From positions 1-64,000 of IMG/VR virus record IMGVR_UViG_3300008517_000034: a stretch of 64,000 nucleotides of DNA; one strand, 5' to 3'. Position 1 is the stretch's first letter, and each line of letters starts with the position of its first letter. This document shows, piece by piece, positions 2,622-40,122 of this stretch. The translations under genes and the position numbers were made by a program. A model generated the notes under the pieces. That model did not search any database. It was not told where the DNA came from and saw nothing but the letters and a program-made list of their open reading frames with translations. The stretch is from a virus.

Positions 2622-2876
2622 TCATTTTAAAAAATCCTCCACAATGTTTTGGTCCTGTCTCTTGCAGGCAGCAACGATTTTAGTATCTTTTAAGCCTACA
2701 TTGATTATTCTAGCAACCTCAAATTCTGATAATGCTACGATACACTGACTTTTCCCAGAATCATAAGTTAATTTTAACCAGAAAATGCCCTCAGTATTAT
2801 CCACCGTCAGAATACCTTTAACCTGTGAATATTCTGGTATCTTTTTACCTCTGGTTATTATTTTCATATATTCCAT
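2622..2876 (-). CDS. Hypothetical protein
   Basis: ORF track; AAGGAG RBS. Confidence 0.55.
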   Translation of the reverse strand: MEYMKIITRGKKIPEYSQVKGILTVDNTEGIFWLKLTYDSGKSQCIVALSEFEVARIINVGLKDTKIVAACKRQDQNIVEDFLK

Positions 2877-3720
2877 CTCCTTTAGTTCCTAATATATAAT
2901 CTACCGCCTTCTGTGCTTGGGCCGAGGCAGAGATTATTAAGGTCGAATCATTGTTGAGCCTCTTTAGCCAGCCCTGGATGTAGGCAGCAGAATTATTGAT
3001 AGTCTTATTCTCTATTCTGCATAAGGCACAGAGGAAGCTCGCTCCTATCTCCGCGACCAGTTCCTCTTTGCTATATTTTTCACTACTAAAACCATTTCCC
3101 TTAGAATCTTTTCTATTGAGTCTTGTCTCGTGTCCGGTCGAGTGGATCAGCTCGTGAAATTTAGAAGAATAATATTTCTCCATATCTTTAAACTCTTTCT
3201 TTGAAGGGATTTTTAATATATCTAATTTAGGATTATAAGCAGCCCTGTTTCCACCTTCCTTAATGGCCGGTGGGTTGGGCATATTAAGAAGAATGTCCTC
3301 GCATTCTTTTGACTGTTTACCATTGCCATAGTCCGGTAACGGGATAGTAGTTTGATCCAGATTGAATATATTGTAGTATCTTAGAGCAAACCTTAACTCT
3401 TTCTTCGGTTCTCCGGTCTCTTCGTTGATCACAAGATTCCCGTCTTTATCCCGGGCCTCTACTTCATACCGCCTAAAAAATATCACCATGTCGGCCCGGC
3501 TCCCCTTCTTTACACTCTCTCTAAGATTCCTGACCTGCCTGAAGGTCACAAATTCACTTGATTGGTGTTCCTCCATGCTGAGCAGTAAAAGATTTATGCC
3601 GTGGTATCCTCGTTTGGTTATGTAGTTTCGTAGGCCTATCCAGGGCTTCTCCCAGGGAATTATCCCTTGGTTTAGCTTATCGATAATCTTTTGGGTTATG
3701 ATCTTATAAACTTTATTCAC
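2845..3720 (-). CDS. ardC: ArdC-like antirestriction protein (ssDNA-binding domain + zincin metallopeptidase)
   Basis: IPWEKPW, YHGINLLLL, FNLDQT, HELIHSTGH, YSKEELVAEIGA, SAAYIQGW motifs. Confidence 0.9.
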   Translation of the reverse strand: MNKVYKIITQKIIDKLNQGIIPWEKPWIGLRNYITKRGYHGINLLLLSMEEHQSSEFVTFRQVRNLRESVKKGSRADMVIFFRRYEVEARDKDGNLVINEETGEPKKELRFALRYYNIFNLDQTTIPLPDYGNGKQSKECEDILLNMPNPPAIKEGGNRAAYNPKLDILKIPSKKEFKDMEKYYSSKFHELIHSTGHETRLNRKDSKGNGFSSEKYSKEELVAEIGASFLCALCRIENKTINNSAAYIQGWLKRLNNDSTLIISASAQAQKAVDYILGTKGDGIYENNNQR

Positions 3721-3726
3721 TTTAGA

Positions 3727-4197
3727 TCATCTCCTAAATACTTTATTACAAAGACTATTTAACATAGCTCCTGTTCTCTTTCCTCTTTTTGCTAATTTCT
3801 GGCATTCGGTTTTATCGGGCATTTCCTTTTCTGCTTCTTTCTTTGTCTTGGCCTTTATTATCGATTTGGGATTGAAATCTCTTAGAGTTGCCGGTTTGAA
3901 TTTTCTCCAACTCGTTGCTAGTAATAGTCTGTGCTCTTTTTTCAGGTTCTCGATAGCAGTCTCTATCTTTTCTAATTTCCCATCGATGTCTTTGTCTATT
4001 ACTTTTACATTTTTAAGGTCGGCATTATACATACCCCATATCCTTGCTCCATGGTGTCTTATATGCGGACCATAGGGCGGTTTGCTAGACATCGAAATAC
4101 ATTCGTATCCCTTTGTTTCTACTATGATTTTCATTCTCGGATCTAATATCTTTATATTAAGTACCCTTCCCCTTCTTTGAGCTACAGCATATCTCAT
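3727..4197 (-). CDS. Hypothetical basic protein
   Basis: 156-aa ORF with AGGAGG upstream, just downstream of a hammerhead-like RNA. Confidence 0.65.
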   Translation of the reverse strand: MRYAVAQRRGRVLNIKILDPRMKIIVETKGYECISMSSKPPYGPHIRHHGARIWGMYNADLKNVKVIDKDIDGKLEKIETAIENLKKEHRLLLATSWRKFKPATLRDFNPKSIIKAKTKKEAEKEMPDKTECQKLAKRGKRTGAMLNSLCNKVFRR

Positions 4198-4221
4198 TAT
4201 CCTTTTCCTCCTTTTCCTTTC

Positions 4222-4287
4222 TTGGTCAATCTCTTCATAGCCGGGTAACCAATCCCAGCGACTCCGGTTAGTCCGGAGTTTCGATTT
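4222..4287 (-). ncRNA. Type II hammerhead ribozyme-like RNA with variant core
   Basis: AATC-GAAA-CTCCGG(ACTAA)CCGGA-GTC^-GCTGGG(ATTGGTTA)CCCGGC-TATGAAGA-GAT-TGACCAA; stems I, II, III plus 7-bp loop-I pseudoknot; core reads UAUGAAGA instead of CUGANGA. Confidence 0.7.
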
Positions 4288-4468
4288 CTAAATCTTTATC
4301 TTCAAGTTCAGTTATAAAATAAAGTTTTATTTCTCCTTCTTCCCCATACCGCATCCTTATCCTGACTTCATCTAGGTTTGCACCGGTAAGTTTTTCCTTA
4401 TCGAGCAGGTCCGCTATCTTATCTTGTAATGATCGAGACAATTTTACCTTTGTAACTTTCCTCTTCAT
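4268..4468 (-). CDS. Small hypothetical protein
   Basis: ORF track; ATGA overlap with the upstream gene; stop codon lies in hammerhead loop III. Confidence 0.65.
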   Translation of the reverse strand: MKRKVTKVKLSRSLQDKIADLLDKEKLTGANLDEVRIRMRYGEEGEIKLYFITELEDKDLEIETPD

Positions 4469-4725
4469 TTTGTATACCCCCCTTCAAATTTGAAACTCGG
4501 AGTCTTTCCTTCGTCTAAGGTAAAAGATAAGTCTACCAATTTTCTGGTCTTCTCTAATCCATAAGCGTCTTTTAATCCTTCTAAATAATAGTTATATTTT
4601 GCGTTCGCTACGTCTACCTCTTTACAATCCTTATTTTCTTTAAGTGTTTGCCTTGCATCGTCTAATAATTTTTTTATTTTCCTGGCTATTCTTCTATCCT
4701 TGTTTTCTAAAACCTCATTTTTCAT
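4465..4725 (-). CDS. Small hypothetical protein
   Basis: ORF track; AAGGAGG RBS. Confidence 0.7.
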   Translation of the reverse strand: MKNEVLENKDRRIARKIKKLLDDARQTLKENKDCKEVDVANAKYNYYLEGLKDAYGLEKTRKLVDLSFTLDEGKTPSFKFEGGYTK

Positions 4726-4763
4726 TTTTAAATCCTCCTTTATTTGATTTCACCAGCAAGGCA

Positions 4764-4937
4764 TTAACCCCGCTTTTCTGCTTTCTTTTTTGTCTTTTTA
4801 TTAACTCTATCAATCTTAAAAGTCGTACCGGTATACTTCTTTTTAAGTCTCCTGAGATGCCTTTCAGCTATCTTGATGTTTTTGTAATTCCCTTCAATAG
4901 TTTTGACGTTCTTTACTTTGGCAGTTATTGAATACAT
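4764..4937 (-). CDS. Small basic hypothetical protein (57 aa, not in ORF track)
   Basis: AAGGAGG-7nt-ATG; MYSITAKVKNVKTIEGNYKNIK...KAEKRG*. Confidence 0.6.
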   Translation of the reverse strand: MYSITAKVKNVKTIEGNYKNIKIAERHLRRLKKKYTGTTFKIDRVNKKTKKKAEKRG

Positions 4938-4953
4938 TTTAAATCCTCCTTAA

Positions 4954-5169
4954 TTATTTATCCCTTCCTAAATAACCTATTAATATTGCTCCACATTTTA
5001 GACATTTAGCCTCACGATTTTCAAGACGGACATTGTCCTGATCTGGTAATTCTTGAAGATATTTTTTTGGATGTTTACATTCCTGTTTAAAATGCTCTTC
5101 TGCTAAATTGTTTAATAAGTTGCAAAGTTTCTTGTTGATTCTGCGGTTAAATACTTTCTTATTTTTCAT
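4954..5169 (-). CDS. Small zinc-ribbon-like protein
   Basis: CKHP...CLKCG motif. Confidence 0.6.
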   Translation of the reverse strand: MKNKKVFNRRINKKLCNLLNNLAEEHFKQECKHPKKYLQELPDQDNVRLENREAKCLKCGAILIGYLGRDK

Positions 5170-5411
5170 TTAAGAATTCTCCTTAATCTTTTTATATTGA
5201 TGTCCTGATATATTTTTTCTGCATCAGATTTATTATTATATATTCCAAACCAACTTTTATTATTTTCACCTTCCAGATAGTAAGGAAACCAATATACCTC
5301 TACCATATATCGATCACTTTTTAAAAGGTTAAATTGTGCTTTCCAGTATCCGGTTTTATATTTTTTTATACATTTCGAGCTGATAACATCTTTGATGTCT
5401 AATCCTTCCAT
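5166..5411 (-). CDS. Small hypothetical protein (start revised to MEGLD)
   Basis: AAGGAG RBS 8 nt before ATG at 5411; the upstream ATG at 5441 lies inside the hammerhead core. Confidence 0.65.
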   Translation of the reverse strand: MEGLDIKDVISSKCIKKYKTGYWKAQFNLLKSDRYMVEVYWFPYYLEGENNKSWFGIYNNKSDAEKIYQDINIKRLRRILK

Positions 5412-5426
5412 TAAAAATTCTCCTTT

Positions 5427-5491
5427 ATTAGCCATTCTCATCAGTACGGATCGGCTAACCTCCGCAGACCCGGCGCTACCCGGGTTTCGAT
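5427..5491 (-). ncRNA. Type II hammerhead ribozyme with loop-I pseudoknot
   Basis: TC-GAAA-CCCGG(GTAGCG)CCGG-GTC^-TGCGGA(GGTTAGCCGA)TCCGTA-CTGATGA-GA-AT-GGCTAAT; intact core (CUGAUGA, GAAA, GUC); loop GTTAGCC pairs with downstream GGCTAAT; predicted cleavage between 5467 and 5466. Confidence 0.9.
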
Positions 5492-5492
5492 T

Positions 5493-5801
5493 TTAGTCTC
5501 TTATAAACTTAAACCGTCTGCTCACTTCCCGGTATCTATTCGCGATGTTGCGTACCTTATCTTTGCTCAATCCTGAGAGCTTTGATACCAGGGTTATGTC
5601 TGACATGTCGATAGCCCCACTTCTCTGGATCCTGGCGTAGGCTTCAAAATCTTTTTTGGTTATCTTAGTCATCTCTGAGATTCCTCCATTTCCGTTTTTT
5701 GATTTCCGGTCCTTCTGTCTATACAGATATAGTCTTCTGGTAAAATCTTCTAAGTCTTTCTTATCTATTGATTTGTTTAGGGATCTTATTTCAACTTGCA
5801 T
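5493..5801 (-). CDS. Hypothetical protein with DUF5049-like C-terminus
   Basis: FEAYARIQRSGAIDM resembles FRAYVKVQKSGITNM in 2130..2576. Confidence 0.6.
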   Translation of the reverse strand: MQVEIRSLNKSIDKKDLEDFTRRLYLYRQKDRKSKNGNGGISEMTKITKKDFEAYARIQRSGAIDMSDITLVSKLSGLSKDKVRNIANRYREVSRRFKFIRD

Positions 5802-6171
5802 TAATCTTCCTCCTTGGATTATCTAGATAATAAAATTTCATCTTGTAGCTATTAAAATCTTTACCCGGTATAATCACGACTTTTTTTAAATCTTTTCCCA
5901 TTAAATTCTTGTTAAGATATTCTTCGAGTACCTCATTAAGGGAAGAGAATAGGCCATCTGGGATAGTAATTTCTTCAAATTCCTTATCCTCTAAAAATAC
6001 ATCTAATACTTCCTTCATCTTATTGACTGTATGATTTCTAAATCCAGCGACTGATATTCCTTCCCTGGTAAGTTTTCCGGTTCTCTTATTCTTGTAGGAT
6101 TGTAAGTCCTCCGCAACATTAACCTCTTCTTTCATAATTAATCGTTGAGCCTTTCTTAATTCAGAATTCAT
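5791..6171 (-). CDS. Hypothetical protein
   Basis: ORF track; GGAGG RBS. Confidence 0.65.
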   Translation of the reverse strand: MNSELRKAQRLIMKEEVNVAEDLQSYKNKRTGKLTREGISVAGFRNHTVNKMKEVLDVFLEDKEFEEITIPDGLFSSLNEVLEEYLNKNLMGKDLKKVVIIPGKDFNSYKMKFYYLDNPRRKINAS

Positions 6172-6387: not shown

Positions 6388-6425
6388 TTCCGTTCCCTCT
6401 CTTATTTCTCTATCTCTCTAATTAC

Positions 6426-6456
6426 ATTATAAGCGTTTGCATAGTCATTTGTCAAG
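6426..6456 (-). promoter_or_regulatory. Strong sigma70-type promoter (TTGACA-18-TATAAT)
   Basis: Perfect -35 and -10 hexamers: CTTGACAAATGACTATGCAAACGCTTATAAT. Confidence 0.85.
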
Positions 6457-6775
6457 TCTTTTATGAAAAAAAAGCCATATTTTTCAATATTTTCCGAATA
6501 TTTTTGCAATGTCGTTAGTTTTCTCTTATTTAAGCCGTCTGGGAAAATTTAGGCCTTCAAATTTCGCTTTTAAGCCCCCTCTTTTGCCCCACCATAGCCA
6601 ATGATACCAACCCTTTCCAAATAATCGCACAGGGGCCATCCTGGTGCGCTTTCAAAAATCGCTGAAACTCTTATAAACAAAGCATTACATTGATTTTCGG
6701 CAAAAATGATCCCAAAAATCACCTTTATTTAAGCTGGAATATCCGGAGGATTCTTGATTTTTTAGCAGAATAAAT

Positions 6776-6815
6776 AAAAAAAAGCTACTGGGATTTAAAT
6801 ATCCCGGTAGCTTTC
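6776..6815 (-). terminator. Intrinsic terminator ending the late/lysis operon
   Basis: AAAGCTACCGGGAT-ATTTAA-ATCCCAGTAGCTTT followed by a T-tract. Confidence 0.8.
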
Positions 6816-6900
6816 GGAGAATTAGTAAAGAATCTTTAGAACATATGTCCGAAGTCTCTCTTCTTCTTTTTGGGCACGCTGTAACTAAACATGCCCTTCT

Positions 6901-7170
6901 TTAAGGGTTTGGTAGAAGTTCCGGCATAAACTTCTTAACCATTGACATAGTAAACGCCTTCTCCAATTTTGTCTTTCCCACATTGTCAAATTTGAAAGAA
7001 GTATTATCGACTACTTTTTGCAAATTGGTATCAAGAGTGGCAACTGCCGGATCGGTAAGAACCTCAGCATCACCCTTTTCAATCAAGCCACAAATAATAC
7101 CATCAAGCCAGTCCCAAGGGATTGTAAATCCCGGAAAGACTTCTATTCCGACTTCTGTTGTTTTAACCAT
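6901..7170 (-). CDS. Hypothetical protein
   Basis: ORF track; AGGAGG RBS. Confidence 0.65.
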   Translation of the reverse strand: MVKTTEVGIEVFPGFTIPWDWLDGIICGLIEKGDAEVLTDPAVATLDTNLQKVVDNTSFKFDNVGKTKLEKAFTMSMVKKFMPELLPNP

Positions 7171-7381
7171 TATTTAAACCTCCTTTCTTTTTTTAATTCT
7201 ATTCTGGTTTAGTAAAATACCAAAACAATCCAGCTATTACAGCGACTATTGCCGCCCACCAATACCAAGCTAATTCTACCATAACAGATTCCTCCTCTCA
7301 CTTCTTAAACGAAGTATTCTAATAGGCTAATCCACCACAAAAAATATATAATCCCTAATGCACCGCCTATAAGCCATTGTA

Positions 7382-7720
7382 TTATTCCCATAAAAATTCA
7401 CCTCTCTCTAAAATTCTCGGCTTGCCGGATGAGTTGATTAGATAATTCTCTCCTACTTCTTCAATCCATCTTTTCAAATCCCAACTCTGCTCCTGCATAA
7501 TTCTTTTTTGATGTTTAGCCTTTAACTGATTCCGCAATTTTGCATTTCTGTGTATAGAATTACTATCGGTTACATGACATCCCCAGCAGGGCCAGATAAT
7601 AGCATTATACCTTTCAGAAAACTTTCTCATGGCCTTTGTTCTGCCAAATATATGGTGCCTTGATACGGTTGTATATTGATGGCAAAAAGGGCATATATCT
7701 TCTTTAAATGCTCTGATCAA
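7382..7720 (-). CDS. HNH-like zinc-binding protein
   Basis: CPFC...HHIFG...CWGCH...IH. Confidence 0.65.
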   Translation of the reverse strand: MIRAFKEDICPFCHQYTTVSRHHIFGRTKAMRKFSERYNAIIWPCWGCHVTDSNSIHRNAKLRNQLKAKHQKRIMQEQSWDLKRWIEEVGENYLINSSGKPRILERGEFLWE

Positions 7721-36265: not shown

Positions 36266-37000
36266 TTATGATTCTAGATATTGGAGTTCCCCAGTATAAG
36301 AAAGGAACTTAATTTGAAGAGGAGAAAATCCATTTTCATTTTCTCTTCTGAAATGTTTTAATTCTTCCTCTGCCTTCATATGAGAAGATCGTGTAAGAGT
36401 AATAAGATAAGAATCAAGATTTTTTCGAATTTTATACCAAGGAATAATATGATGATTGCATAAATTATCTATTTTCCTAGTTAAAAAACATTTATATCCA
36501 TCTCTTTCTAAAATTCTTTTTCTGGCTTCTTCCCATTCTCTAGTATGACGAAAATCATAACCTGTCCACCGACAATGATTTTTTCCTCTATTAAATTCAT
36601 GATAACATTTTAACGAACAAAATTGCTTGTTATAATATTTTATCCTGCTCTTTCTTCGTTCAATTTTTTTTCCGCAATTAAAACAAATGACTTTAATCCA
36701 ATTATTTTTCTGCTTAGACTGGTAATAACATCTAAATGAACAAAACTCTGCCGTTCCTTTCCTGCAAGGGGAGACATAAAACTTCTTTCCACAAGTAAGA
36801 CATCTTTTGGGTATTTTTTTAGATATAGCTCTTATTATCTTTTTATAATGGACTTCCTTCCTAACTTTAAGTCCGAGAGAGCAAGCCTTTCCGTAGATAG
36901 AACTTCTAGTATATTTCTTCAATAGAGGCTTAATTTCTGGACCTTTATCGCTGTATTCTCTTCTTAATAAATTTTCATCTTCTTCCGGCCATCTCCTCAT
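36266..37000 (-). CDS. HNH homing-type endonuclease with Zn-ribbon repeats
   Basis: FCS..C repeats; ILERDGYKC...HHIIP...LITL...H. Confidence 0.8.
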   Translation of the reverse strand: MRRWPEEDENLLRREYSDKGPEIKPLLKKYTRSSIYGKACSLGLKVRKEVHYKKIIRAISKKIPKRCLTCGKKFYVSPCRKGTAEFCSFRCYYQSKQKNNWIKVICFNCGKKIERRKSRIKYYNKQFCSLKCYHEFNRGKNHCRWTGYDFRHTREWEEARKRILERDGYKCFLTRKIDNLCNHHIIPWYKIRKNLDSYLITLTRSSHMKAEEELKHFRRENENGFSPLQIKFLSYTGELQYLES

Positions 37001-40000
37001 TTATATGCCTCTCTTCCAAATTGTTTAACTTCATTTGCGGGAACTGGGTAATAACTACCTTTCTGTGCTTTATGTTCAATTGGGTCCATAGGTAAAGGAT
37101 TATCACTGCATTTCCAGAACCACCATCTATTATTCTTTCCCGCCTTAAAACACCTAATAATGTATCTCCCGTTTAATATTTCTTTATCTTTACATCTATC
37201 AGGATAAAAAAAGTATTCGTGTACGTCTTCTCTTTGTACACCAGCTTTTACCTTTCCAAGATAGACAGCTTGCATGAAGGCATCTTTATAAGCAGTTGCC
37301 CCTACTTCTCCAGCTTTTATGATATATGATTTATCAAGAAGTGCGAGATCGGCTACTATTTTTGCTCCTTTAGCATTTAGTAATGCCTCTTTTACTTCCG
37401 ATTTTTTCAATTCTCTAGTAGGTTCCTCTGCACTAGGTTTAACAATACAGAGTCCTTTATCTACATTACCAGTTTTTGGATCTCTTTTTCCCTTTAAGGC
37501 ATTCAAATAAGCATCGATTGAATCTTCAGTTAGGACCCATTGAATAAGTTTATTCTTAAATTTCATTCTGATATCACAATGCATACTATGATCCTCTAAT
37601 AGTTTAGCAAGAGATATTTTTTTCTGTTTCCATTGTTTAGTCTCATTCGGTTCTAATCCTCTAAAGTGGAATTGAGCCCACATCATTCCCTCATCATAAT
37701 CCGGATAAAATTCTTTAGGTAGTGGTTCATTTTCCTTGGCGTATATCTTATATATTTCTTTGGGAATCTTCCCTCCCTCTATGCTTATCTTAATATCATC
37801 TTTAATTCCCTTTTCCACTAGGGCCTCTCTCCGTGGAGTGAACTCAGAAAGCCTCTCCAATACAAACATTTTGTCCGGTACATTCTTTTCCGGAACCGGT
37901 TGTAATACTACACTCACATAAGCTTTATAATAGGGGTATTTAGGATCTTCAGTCTCGTAGCTATTGACATCTTCGCTGGCTACTCTTAGTATCGAACCTA
38001 TCACTACATCCTGTTTCGTATTATCCGACTTCCCTATATGGTTATAAAACTTCTCCCTAAATTCTATTACTGCCTTCTTATCTTTTCTGCTTATGGCCTC
38101 TGCCCACTCTTTATCAATGGGTCCCACAGCTAATTCGTAATTCCAATTCCCGGTCTTCTTTCCTTCTCTGATAATTTCCTTTTCCCCCACTACCAGGCAA
38201 TCAATCTCGTACTTCTCCTTCCATTTGCAAGCACCATGGTCTTGAGGCATTTCGTAGGGGGTGTTGAGTAATTTAATCATTACTCCCTCGGCAATATGTT
38301 TGGGATAAGGACCACCTCTATGGGCATAGCCCATCATCTTATCTTTAACCTTTTCAACTTGCTTAAGATCCTCTAAATCCACAATATAAGATAAGGCTTC
38401 TTTCTGTAAATTAGTTGAACTTCTAACAAAATGAACGTGCTCAGAATCTTTGAATTTGCTGAGCAGTTCCTTACGCTCTTTTAGAGGCCAATCTTTGATA
38501 TTTTTCCCATCATATTCCACAATATCAAAAATGTAAATATGAGCTTTCTTACTAGCCTCGGTGGGGTCGAACTTCCCGTTTAAAAGTGCATTAGTGACTA
38601 CCCTGTGTAAGCATTCATTCTTTTCCTTATCAATCATTATTATTTCAGAATCCCCCACAAAATCTTCCTTCATCTTCTTAAGCTCTTCTACCTGCCAGGG
38701 TAGTCTCTCGGTCTTGATGGGAGAGCCTTTAATATCCTCTGGATCACTCATTATAATTACATCTTTGCCCTTCTTTACAATTTTCGTCCTCATTCCATCA
38801 AACTTGGCTTCGACAATTGCTTTTCCTTTCTGAAAATGGGGAGTATTTTTAAGGTCCTCAAAGGTAAATATTCGATAGGCCGGTTTATTTAAGCCCCATT
38901 TTTCTCTCTTCTCAAAATCCTTCTCTTCTAAGATATCACCATCATATAAGATCTTACCATTCCATATCTTAAGCCCGGCATTAACCTTCTCTTTATGCTT
39001 TAAAATATCCTTTCTTAAATTAGTGAGATATATTACCTTCGGTTTCAATTCCTCTGCTAATTGCAGGAGAGAGAGAAAAGAAAGTTTCCCTCTTTCTCTG
39101 TCATCCTTTTCATAATCTCCTACTCCACAAATCCAGATAGTCCCTTGTATCAGGTCTTTCTGTGCCTTCCCTAATTCTAAGAACTCGGGCAAGATCGATA
39201 TCTTCTTTTTTCCTACATCTAATCTCAAACCTATAGAAGGTGTCCCGACTGCCGGGGTAGTCTTGATCGGTATAATCCCCAAGCCATCAATCTTTAGTGG
39301 TTTTAAGAATAGATGCGTATCTTCCCTCTTGGGTAGCCGGTCAAATATTGCTCCTACAGTATAGACCGGGATATCCTTATATTCATTAAGATATTCCCAG
39401 TGGTCCTTATCGGCTTGAGTTATAATTATAAAGTCTAAATCCTCTTTTACCTCTTTCTGGTGTACTGCTGGGTCGATAAGAATCCTTTTATCTTTGTGAC
39501 GTATAAGCAGAGAGAAGTGTTTGCCCTGTGGGGAATTAAGCTGGGCCATGGTGCCGAGGACCTGGATAAAACCGGTCTTCGGTATATCATCTTTCTTTCT
39601 TACTATCTCAATCTTCTCCTTAGGCCTTAGCACTTTTTCAAATAGTGGGATGCATGAATCCCATTCAGTCAGATCATAAATAAAATTCAGCTTCTTATTT
39701 ATCTGTTTCTCGAAAAGTTTAGTAATTGCTGATTCTAACTTTGGATTCTGCTCATCCCTAATAAGTATATTTATATCCGGTTGGTCTCTTAGGGATTTCT
39801 TCGAATCTCTTACAATACTAATATATTCAGGATCGAGCATTATCGAACCTAAACTGGACATATCTATTCCCAATTCTTCTTTCTTAAACACTATATCGTC
39901 TATGCTGGTCTCAACATGATTTATTTTTCTCTTATGCATCTCCCTGACCAGCAATTGATACTTCCCGAGAAAATCACCTCTTTTGACATCTAATTTAGGT

Positions 40001-40122
40001 TTCGGTTTCTCAAAATATTTTTCCCATAGCTGTGAAAAGCGTAGGTCCAGAGAATACAGTTCTATATTAGGTGCTTTCCTCAGGTTTAATTTTGTCATCT
40101 CTTCTATTCTCAATATTTTCAC
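36997..40122 (-). CDS. Multidomain ATP-dependent DNA ligase (degenerate NTase + degenerate MBL + ligase + LigD-type phosphoesterase)
   Basis: EAKFDG, DSEI, IFDIV, EGVMIK, KWK ligase motifs; VLGT..ILIDP..ITQADKDH MBL fold; QFH...HCDIRM..W phosphoesterase-like. Confidence 0.85.
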   Translation of the reverse strand: MKILRIEEMTKLNLRKAPNIELYSLDLRFSQLWEKYFEKPKPKLDVKRGDFLGKYQLLVREMHKRKINHVETSIDDIVFKKEELGIDMSSLGSIMLDPEYISIVRDSKKSLRDQPDINILIRDEQNPKLESAITKLFEKQINKKLNFIYDLTEWDSCIPLFEKVLRPKEKIEIVRKKDDIPKTGFIQVLGTMAQLNSPQGKHFSLLIRHKDKRILIDPAVHQKEVKEDLDFIIITQADKDHWEYLNEYKDIPVYTVGAIFDRLPKREDTHLFLKPLKIDGLGIIPIKTTPAVGTPSIGLRLDVGKKKISILPEFLELGKAQKDLIQGTIWICGVGDYEKDDRERGKLSFLSLLQLAEELKPKVIYLTNLRKDILKHKEKVNAGLKIWNGKILYDGDILEEKDFEKREKWGLNKPAYRIFTFEDLKNTPHFQKGKAIVEAKFDGMRTKIVKKGKDVIIMSDPEDIKGSPIKTERLPWQVEELKKMKEDFVGDSEIIMIDKEKNECLHRVVTNALLNGKFDPTEASKKAHIYIFDIVEYDGKNIKDWPLKERKELLSKFKDSEHVHFVRSSTNLQKEALSYIVDLEDLKQVEKVKDKMMGYAHRGGPYPKHIAEGVMIKLLNTPYEMPQDHGACKWKEKYEIDCLVVGEKEIIREGKKTGNWNYELAVGPIDKEWAEAISRKDKKAVIEFREKFYNHIGKSDNTKQDVVIGSILRVASEDVNSYETEDPKYPYYKAYVSVVLQPVPEKNVPDKMFVLERLSEFTPRREALVEKGIKDDIKISIEGGKIPKEIYKIYAKENEPLPKEFYPDYDEGMMWAQFHFRGLEPNETKQWKQKKISLAKLLEDHSMHCDIRMKFKNKLIQWVLTEDSIDAYLNALKGKRDPKTGNVDKGLCIVKPSAEEPTRELKKSEVKEALLNAKGAKIVADLALLDKSYIIKAGEVGATAYKDAFMQAVYLGKVKAGVQREDVHEYFFYPDRCKDKEILNGRYIIRCFKAGKNNRWWFWKCSDNPLPMDPIEHKAQKGSYYPVPANEVKQFGREAYK

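Follow-up and report, generated by a model that had tools for sequence, protein, structure and literature searches.

Two type II hammerhead ribozymes around a variable small-gene cassette in a marine-sediment phage, and their probable role in transcript processing

What becomes of a phage transcript that carries a hammerhead ribozyme on either side of a block of small genes? The question is raised by IMG/VR virus record IMGVR_UViG_3300008517_000034, a 75.9-kilobase (kb) phage sequence that is about 70% complete and carries essentially every gene on the minus strand; the runs containing sequence of this phage are marine-sediment metagenomes. The analysis covered a 64-kb stretch of it (positions 1 to 64,000, hereafter the window), in which two type II hammerheads, here called HH-A and HH-B, lie on the coding strand and enclose five small open reading frames (ORFs):

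5426..5492, minus strand: HH-A, type II hammerhead (Rfam RF02276, 35.7 bits)
4221..4286, minus strand: HH-B, type II hammerhead with a variant core (Rfam RF02276, 34.6 bits)

We consider it fairly probable that the two act in cis and process one early phage transcript into insulated segments. The original prediction for this locus, made from the letters alone, had gone further and proposed that double cleavage releases the enclosed RNA, possibly as a circle.

The window was scanned on both strands (64 kb) with the Rfam model Hammerhead_II (RF02276), whose gathering score is 37 bits. The E-values obtained were 0.0015 for HH-A and 0.003 for HH-B. A default Rfam search of the window is empty because both fall 1-2.5 bits below this cut-off. 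No hammerhead beyond these two was found with RF02276 in the window or in the full record; neither other ribozyme classes nor extra hammerheads were detected, the threshold being E ≤ 1 for the window and E ≤ 5 for the 14 metagenome loci introduced below, and a search for tRNA genes found none. Each ribozyme occupies, on the coding strand, the whole space from a stop codon to the Shine-Dalgarno (SD) sequence that follows. This placement between a stop codon and a ribosome-binding site (RBS), together with conservation in which pairing is kept (96-99% of cells), marks HH-A and HH-B as more than chance matches.

The two RNAs share the opening AAAUCGAAAC. The core of HH-A is the full consensus (CGAAAC / GUC / CUGAUGA), with the GAAA present and with the pairs A15.1-U16.1 and U1.1-A2.1; C17 of its GUC triplet is C5467, and cleavage is predicted directly 3' of this residue. 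Stems III and I are each of 6 base pairs (bp), stem II is minimal at 2 bp (C-G, U-A) and forms the open end, and a pseudoknot of 6-7 bp links loop I (UUAGCCG) to the 3' tail (UGGCUAA). Given the full consensus core, HH-A should cut fast. The element begins right behind the stop codon of a gene for a protein of 102 amino acids (aa), and its tail reaches into the SD sequence of the first cassette gene, ORF1. HH-B is likewise open at stem II, with a stem III of 7 bp, a stem I of 6 bp, a stem II of 4 bp and a 6-bp pseudoknot (UUGGUU with GACCAA). C17 of its GUC triplet is C4260, with putative cleavage 3' of this residue. Stems III and I appear in its minimum free energy fold (z = -2.9), and its loop III holds the TAA stop codon (4270-4268) of ORF5. 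The anatomy described in the original prediction was therefore borne out by the Rfam matches, the core, stem and pseudoknot pairing and the conservation: two sense-strand type II hammerheads, each with a loop-I pseudoknot, C17 at 5467 and 4260, an interval of 1207 nucleotides (nt), five intact ORFs, and the ORF5 stop in loop III. Each of the five ORFs has an SD sequence.

Relatives of the region were gathered with the flanking proteins and ORF4, yielding two viral and 14 metagenome loci (numbered with an L below). An HH-A orthologue stands at the same site, after the stop of the 102-aa gene, in 13 of the 13 loci that cover it. These orthologues score 28.8-39.6 bits, with four of the 13 above the Rfam cut-off (37.3-39.6 bits) and the window copy below it. 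Across 14 sequences the HH-A pairing is kept in 96% of cells, against 21-42% when the partners are slid. Nucleotide identity among the relatives amounts to 85-94% in HH-A and to 69-78% in the adjoining 102-aa gene; loop III is free to vary, and the changes in the stems are wobble-compatible. An HH-B-type ribozyme occurs in seven of the ten informative relatives (L040, L042, L043, L044, L046, L048 and L050), where it closes the small-ORF block, immediately before the next larger gene; L005, L039, L049 and L051 were left out of this count, their contigs ending too early. HH-B pairing is kept in 99% of cells across eight sequences, and the best-scoring orthologue, that of L048, reaches 38.3 bits, above the cut-off. 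The Infernal search of relatives thus recovered the HH-A and HH-B-type pair around a variable small-ORF block in six further loci; the seventh locus is 5'-truncated and has HH-B.

The core of HH-B is unusual. Where the consensus has CUGAUGA, its box reads U-A-UGAAGA; it thus departs from the C3-A9 consensus at or next to C3, and it retains the GAAA, the A15.1-U16.1 pair and the GUC triplet. In seven HH-B orthologues the two bases preceding UGAAGA are UA, CA or UG, with U at position 3 in most copies and a true C there in L048 and L050. The box is best read as Y3 plus one inserted purine, followed by U4 G5 A6 A7 G8 A9, an arrangement in which Y3 could still pair with G8 (C-G or U-G). In an alternative parse, the insertion would precede position 3 and a purine would occupy that position; either way, one surplus base lies near C3.

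The same U-A-UGAAGA box was found in an unrelated phage that shares no proteins with the present one (L011 4777-4841, minus strand, with an identical copy at L015 2854-2918, minus strand). The element there is a solitary type II hammerhead flanked by ORFs of 203 aa and 320 aa, in the gap from a stop codon to the next gene. Compared with HH-B, it has entirely different sequences in stems III and II and in the pseudoknot, all of which nevertheless pair, and two changed pairs in stem I. HH-A, HH-B and the L011 element were compared by means of Rfam's model and structure-aware parsing; a MAFFT alignment of the three was discarded, as it misaligned the GUC and the stems. HH-A and HH-B themselves are similar in the core and stem II only, with stems I and III and the pseudoknot all different. 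The recurrence of so odd a box in an unrelated phage argues that the variant is maintained and is not one decayed copy. By the counts obtained, a core with one extra base is rare: among 33 viral pattern matches the UA form was confined to L011/L015, none of the 63 viral pattern matches to the CA and CG forms was structured, and none of the 120 matches listed from prokaryote genomes, for which the pattern required a GGC stem end, was structured either. The L011 hammerhead scores only 23 bits in Rfam, and such variants therefore escape routine annotation.

Between the two predicted cleavage sites lies an interval of 1207 nt (5466-4260), with five small ORFs:

5166..5411, minus strand: ORF1, 81 aa; ATG at 5411 with SD sequence, a longer frame from 5441 beginning within HH-A
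4954..5169, minus strand: ORF2, 71 aa; two CxxC-like pairs, covered by contigs of two other studies
4764..4937, minus strand: ORF3, 57 aa, basic; 72-91% identity over 46 aa in L040, L041, L044, L046 and L047
4465..4725, minus strand: ORF4, 86 aa; 91-97% aa and 93-96% nt identity in all loci
4268..4468, minus strand: ORF5, 66 aa; start overlaps the ORF4 stop (ATGA)

The gene set between the ribozymes differs at every locus, with two to eight small ORFs and about 710-1840 nt from one ribozyme to the other. ORF4 is the sole gene found downstream of HH-A in every relative. Relatives of ORF1 are present in L046 (89% aa identity) and L049 (68%), and those of ORF5 are confined to L043 (98%) and L044 (95%), with no ORF5 relative in the viral_contigs set. 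Pfam and PHROGs gave no match for any of the five ORFs or for their immediate neighbours, an ArdC-type gene excepted, and the ESM Atlas gave no lead for ORF4.

Near-identical RBS modules (AAUAAAGGAGGAUUUAAAA then AUG, minus strand) precede the small ORFs, at 4714-4744, 4937-4955, 5158-5187 and 5399-5429. In contigs of other samples, the joints of deletions and replacements fall exactly within these modules (4727-4758 to 5415-5430; 5169 to 5411), and some contigs have ORF4 directly behind HH-A or HH-B directly behind ORF4. In contigs of four other studies the depth peaks at both ribozymes and ORF4, and is near nil at ORFs 1-3 and 5. As the joints sit in the RBS repeats, the data suggest that the cassette genes are shuffled by recombination at these repeats and not at the ribozymes. 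What appears to be new here, at the level of a population, is one fixed and one facultative ribozyme around an RBS-shuffled cassette; the same appears to hold for the rare core insertion of one base, which an unrelated, second lineage of phages also maintains.

The surroundings of the cassette contain the following features:

6426..6455, minus strand: sigma-70-type promoter-like site, 12/12 consensus match (TTGACA-18-TATAAT), a putative promoter
5493..5801, minus strand: 102-aa gene (p102), its stop abutting HH-A
3727..4197, minus strand: 156-aa gene (p156), first gene of the predicted HH-B 3' cleavage product
2845..3720, minus strand: ArdC-type anti-restriction protein, with ArdcN and zincin-like metallopeptidase domains

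The ArdC assignment is based on matches to Pfam PF08401 (2.1e-22) and PF18818 (6e-35) and to PHROG 7245 (9.5e-67). An anti-defence role for the cassette is plausible, the basis for this being the one ArdC gene two genes downstream. The promoter-like site lies just upstream of a 71-aa gene (p71), in a region (6400-7400) that is otherwise ORF-poor, and no terminator-like site was found on the minus strand from there down to position 2500. A single operon comprising p71, p126, p102, HH-A, the cassette, HH-B, p156 and ArdC, and starting from 6455-6426, is likely. In L041, a locus without HH-B, an ORF3-like gene (5902-6063; 72% over 46 aa) lies downstream of ArdC and outside the block; hence, the small genes are not confined to the bracketed cassette.

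How would such an operon be processed? Transcription probably starts at the promoter-like site. A cut by HH-A after C5467 would part the p71-p126-p102 segment from the cassette RNA. The upstream RNA would then terminate in a stem III hairpin bearing a 2',3'-cyclic phosphate, and the cassette RNA would open with a 5'-OH and the stem I/pseudoknot fold, with the SD sequence of its first gene 4-5 nt further on. HH-B would act likewise ahead of the 156-aa gene and ArdC. Every segment would gain its own defined 5' leader and 3' end, and the decay and translation of the conserved genes would be insulated from whichever small genes recombination has placed beside them. Because the two halves of a cleaved type II hammerhead are held by a stem II of merely 2-4 bp, their structure would favor release over re-ligation. 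Furthermore, ribosomes that terminate at the end of the upstream ORF would occupy the 5' portion of each ribozyme, and cleavage may hinge on upstream translation. A synthetic hammerhead insulator, RiboJ, is placed directly upstream of an RBS to strip variable upstream RNA and standardise the 5' leader. RiboJ is engineered, whereas HH-A and HH-B would be natural counterparts of it, and the insulating effect proposed for them is an analogy with such synthetic constructs.

Several observations weigh against this processing scheme, and most concern HH-B. The bracketing foreseen in the original prediction recurs in relatives, as described above, and to this extent it stands; the second ribozyme is missing, despite coverage, in L003/L041, L045 and L047, and the pair is therefore dispensable. 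L003 has no HH-B and yet retains the same downstream 156-aa gene, so HH-B is not required for that gene. No pair has changed on both sides within either the HH-A or the HH-B family; the relatives are too close for such two-sided changes, and shuffles are uninformative for the same reason. The HH-B orthologue of L050 carries an A-C mismatch at pair 1.1-2.1, and the core of HH-B lies outside the 2011 acceptance criteria for hammerheads (PMC3088659). Finally, HH-B is probably a slow or partial cutter, which argues against full double cleavage: saltern hammerheads with insertions (2a/2b) near C3 show very low self-cleavage at 15 mM Mg2+, and removal of the insertions restores it (PMC3088659). With a slow or partial HH-B, the 1207-nt piece would be one among several RNA species.

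On an alternative account only HH-A is active, and HH-B is crippled or dead, kept as a structured leader ahead of the next gene or in the course of being lost; the transcript would be cut once, before the cassette, and the 1207-nt RNA would not be released. The surplus base by C3, the U at position 3 in most copies, the poor cleavage of the saltern variants, the loci devoid of HH-B and the rarity of the variant among the viral matches and the prokaryote matches listed (0 structured of 63 and of 120, respectively) are all consistent with such an outcome. However, the eight HH-B copies retain intact every remaining core base as well as all three stems and the pseudoknot, and two of them (L048 and L050) have the C at position 3. 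The box kept in the unrelated L011/L015 phage despite differing helices argues that the core, including its insertion, is maintained. In addition, the halovirus variant of Perreault et al. matches a 5' end mapped in vivo (PMC3088659). We therefore regard an inactive HH-B as doubtful.

A more elaborate fate, and a very improbable one, is that both ribozymes cut and a host RtcB-type ligase then links the 5'-OH end (5466) with the cyclic-phosphate end (4260), making a circular five-gene mRNA, or else joins the flanks, with the cassette spliced out. The 5'-OH and cyclic phosphate ends left by hammerheads suit RtcB-type joining, and the end chemistry is thus compatible with the proposal. The stem II halves are interchangeable, with AAUC on both 5' sides and GAAU or GAUU on the 3' sides, so a joined product would rebuild a whole hammerhead, and the ribozyme pair recurs among relatives. 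Such a rebuilt junction would, however, have the consensus core of HH-A and hence re-cut itself. That a ligase makes a translated circular cassette mRNA or spliced flanks in this way, with the rebuilt hammerhead serving as a switch between cutting and rejoining, is a speculation to which we give hardly any credence; if true, phages with double-stranded DNA (dsDNA) would thereby have their first natural example of a circular mRNA made by a ribozyme.

Further evidence goes against joining of either kind. Perreault et al. sought circular and spliced products of prophage clusters and detected neither (PMC3088659). The 1207-nt RNA has no end-joining complementarity, only AT-rich 10-14-mers being found in it; the 2-4 bp of stem II favor release of the cleaved halves; HH-B is probably slow; and only one ribozyme is present in three relatives. 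The spacing of the pair is far from constant, with ORF4 as the sole conserved feature of the interval, and no RtcB is encoded in the phage record (about 70% complete, its host not identified). The circularised cassette of the original prediction consequently finds no support here. The sole metatranscriptome run with relatives of the region, X20, is available as contigs, which hide ends, strand and level and may include DNA carry-over; among them no back-joined (circular) joint is listed, and they are neutral on cleavage or circles. Splicing as an explanation for skips in X20 contigs (e.g. 4288 to 4474) was rejected, as the same skips occur in DNA runs and represent genome variants. As a separate observation, the gene of a 1041-aa protein lies among the head genes (36997-40122, minus strand). 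An ATP-dependent DNA ligase domain (PF01068, 1.9e-16) was recognised in this protein, together with a weak match of metallo-beta-lactamase type; the protein is not RtcB.

That the hammerheads serve as conserved-DNA anchors for recombination at the cassette edges, and not as RNA catalysts, is scarcely credible: they are the best conserved stretches flanking a hypervariable block, but the variant joints lie in all four RBS modules and not in the ribozymes, for which reason the ribozymes were rejected as recombination points, the conservation tracks RNA structure (stems kept, loop III free), and the similarity of HH-A to HH-B is limited to the core and stem II, too little for mutual homologous exchange.

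Transcript processing by two cis-acting hammerheads also has precedent. Type II hammerheads with a pseudoknot between loop I and the 3' tail were described by Perreault et al. (2011), who reported that several of them often flank single genes or short variable blocks in prophages (PMC3088659). Clustered prophage hammerheads cleave polycistronic transcripts of about 2 kb in vitro, and an Agrobacterium tumefaciens set flanking ardA does so also in Escherichia coli (PMC3088659); in Desulfovibrio vulgaris, cleavage in vivo has been shown for three type II hammerheads located beside phage-like genes (PMC8782182). The present locus has the same makeup, with two coding-strand hammerheads separated by 1.2 kb of variable genes in a phage record, and the predicted pair is a well-documented example of the clustered phage arrangement known since 2011. 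The idea put forward in the original prediction is hence not new, as hammerheads flanking prophage gene blocks, and circular or spliced products from them, were already raised at that time (PMC3088659).

The resemblance to these clusters extends to several features: a phage operon with several coding-strand hammerheads in the space of a few kb, the inconstancy of the flanked genes, the type II topology with a pseudoknot between loop I and the 3' tail, the proximity of an anti-restriction gene (ardA in the clusters, ArdC in the present phage) and the hypotheses advanced, namely gene-length mRNA processing or circular/spliced products. In contrast to the clusters, the phage pair has here been traced through close relatives, with one ribozyme fixed and the other facultative; the genes turn over at RBS repeats, the second core is non-consensus, and cleavage is here a prediction.

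Two further comparisons are instructive. The saltern HHmeta/HHphage hammerheads (PMC3088659) resemble HH-B in the extra core nucleotide(s) by C3, in their phage context and in their position upstream of the first gene of a polycistron. They differ in that two inserted bases (2a/2b) lie between stem I and C3, whereas HH-B has one extra base with a C or U at position 3, and in their origin, a hypersaline pond, having been reported from salterns only, as opposed to the marine sediment of HH-B. Retrozymes and viroid-like RNAs (PMC4918200, PMC7229834) likewise have two hammerheads of the same orientation bounding a roughly 1-kb RNA whose ends are a 5'-OH and a cyclic phosphate. Theirs are near-identical type III or type I repeats around non-coding RNA, with circles demonstrated and replication via RNA or cDNA. 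HH-A and HH-B, on the other hand, differ in stems I and III and in the pseudoknot, are thus not repeats of one another, and enclose a translated five-gene message in a dsDNA phage.

The locus offers a clean natural comparison for examining the role of phage and bacterial hammerheads, the same operon occurring in close relatives with one ribozyme or with two. It allows one to ask whether conserved genes, including ArdC, are insulated from shuffling small early genes, whether a variant core cuts slowly or conditionally, and whether ligation products are formed. Finally, downstream of the cassette region L045 (1627-2115) and L043 (5425-5913) encode a longer protein (about 162 aa) that is 29% identical to a portion of the 102-aa gene product, of which it may be a paralogue.

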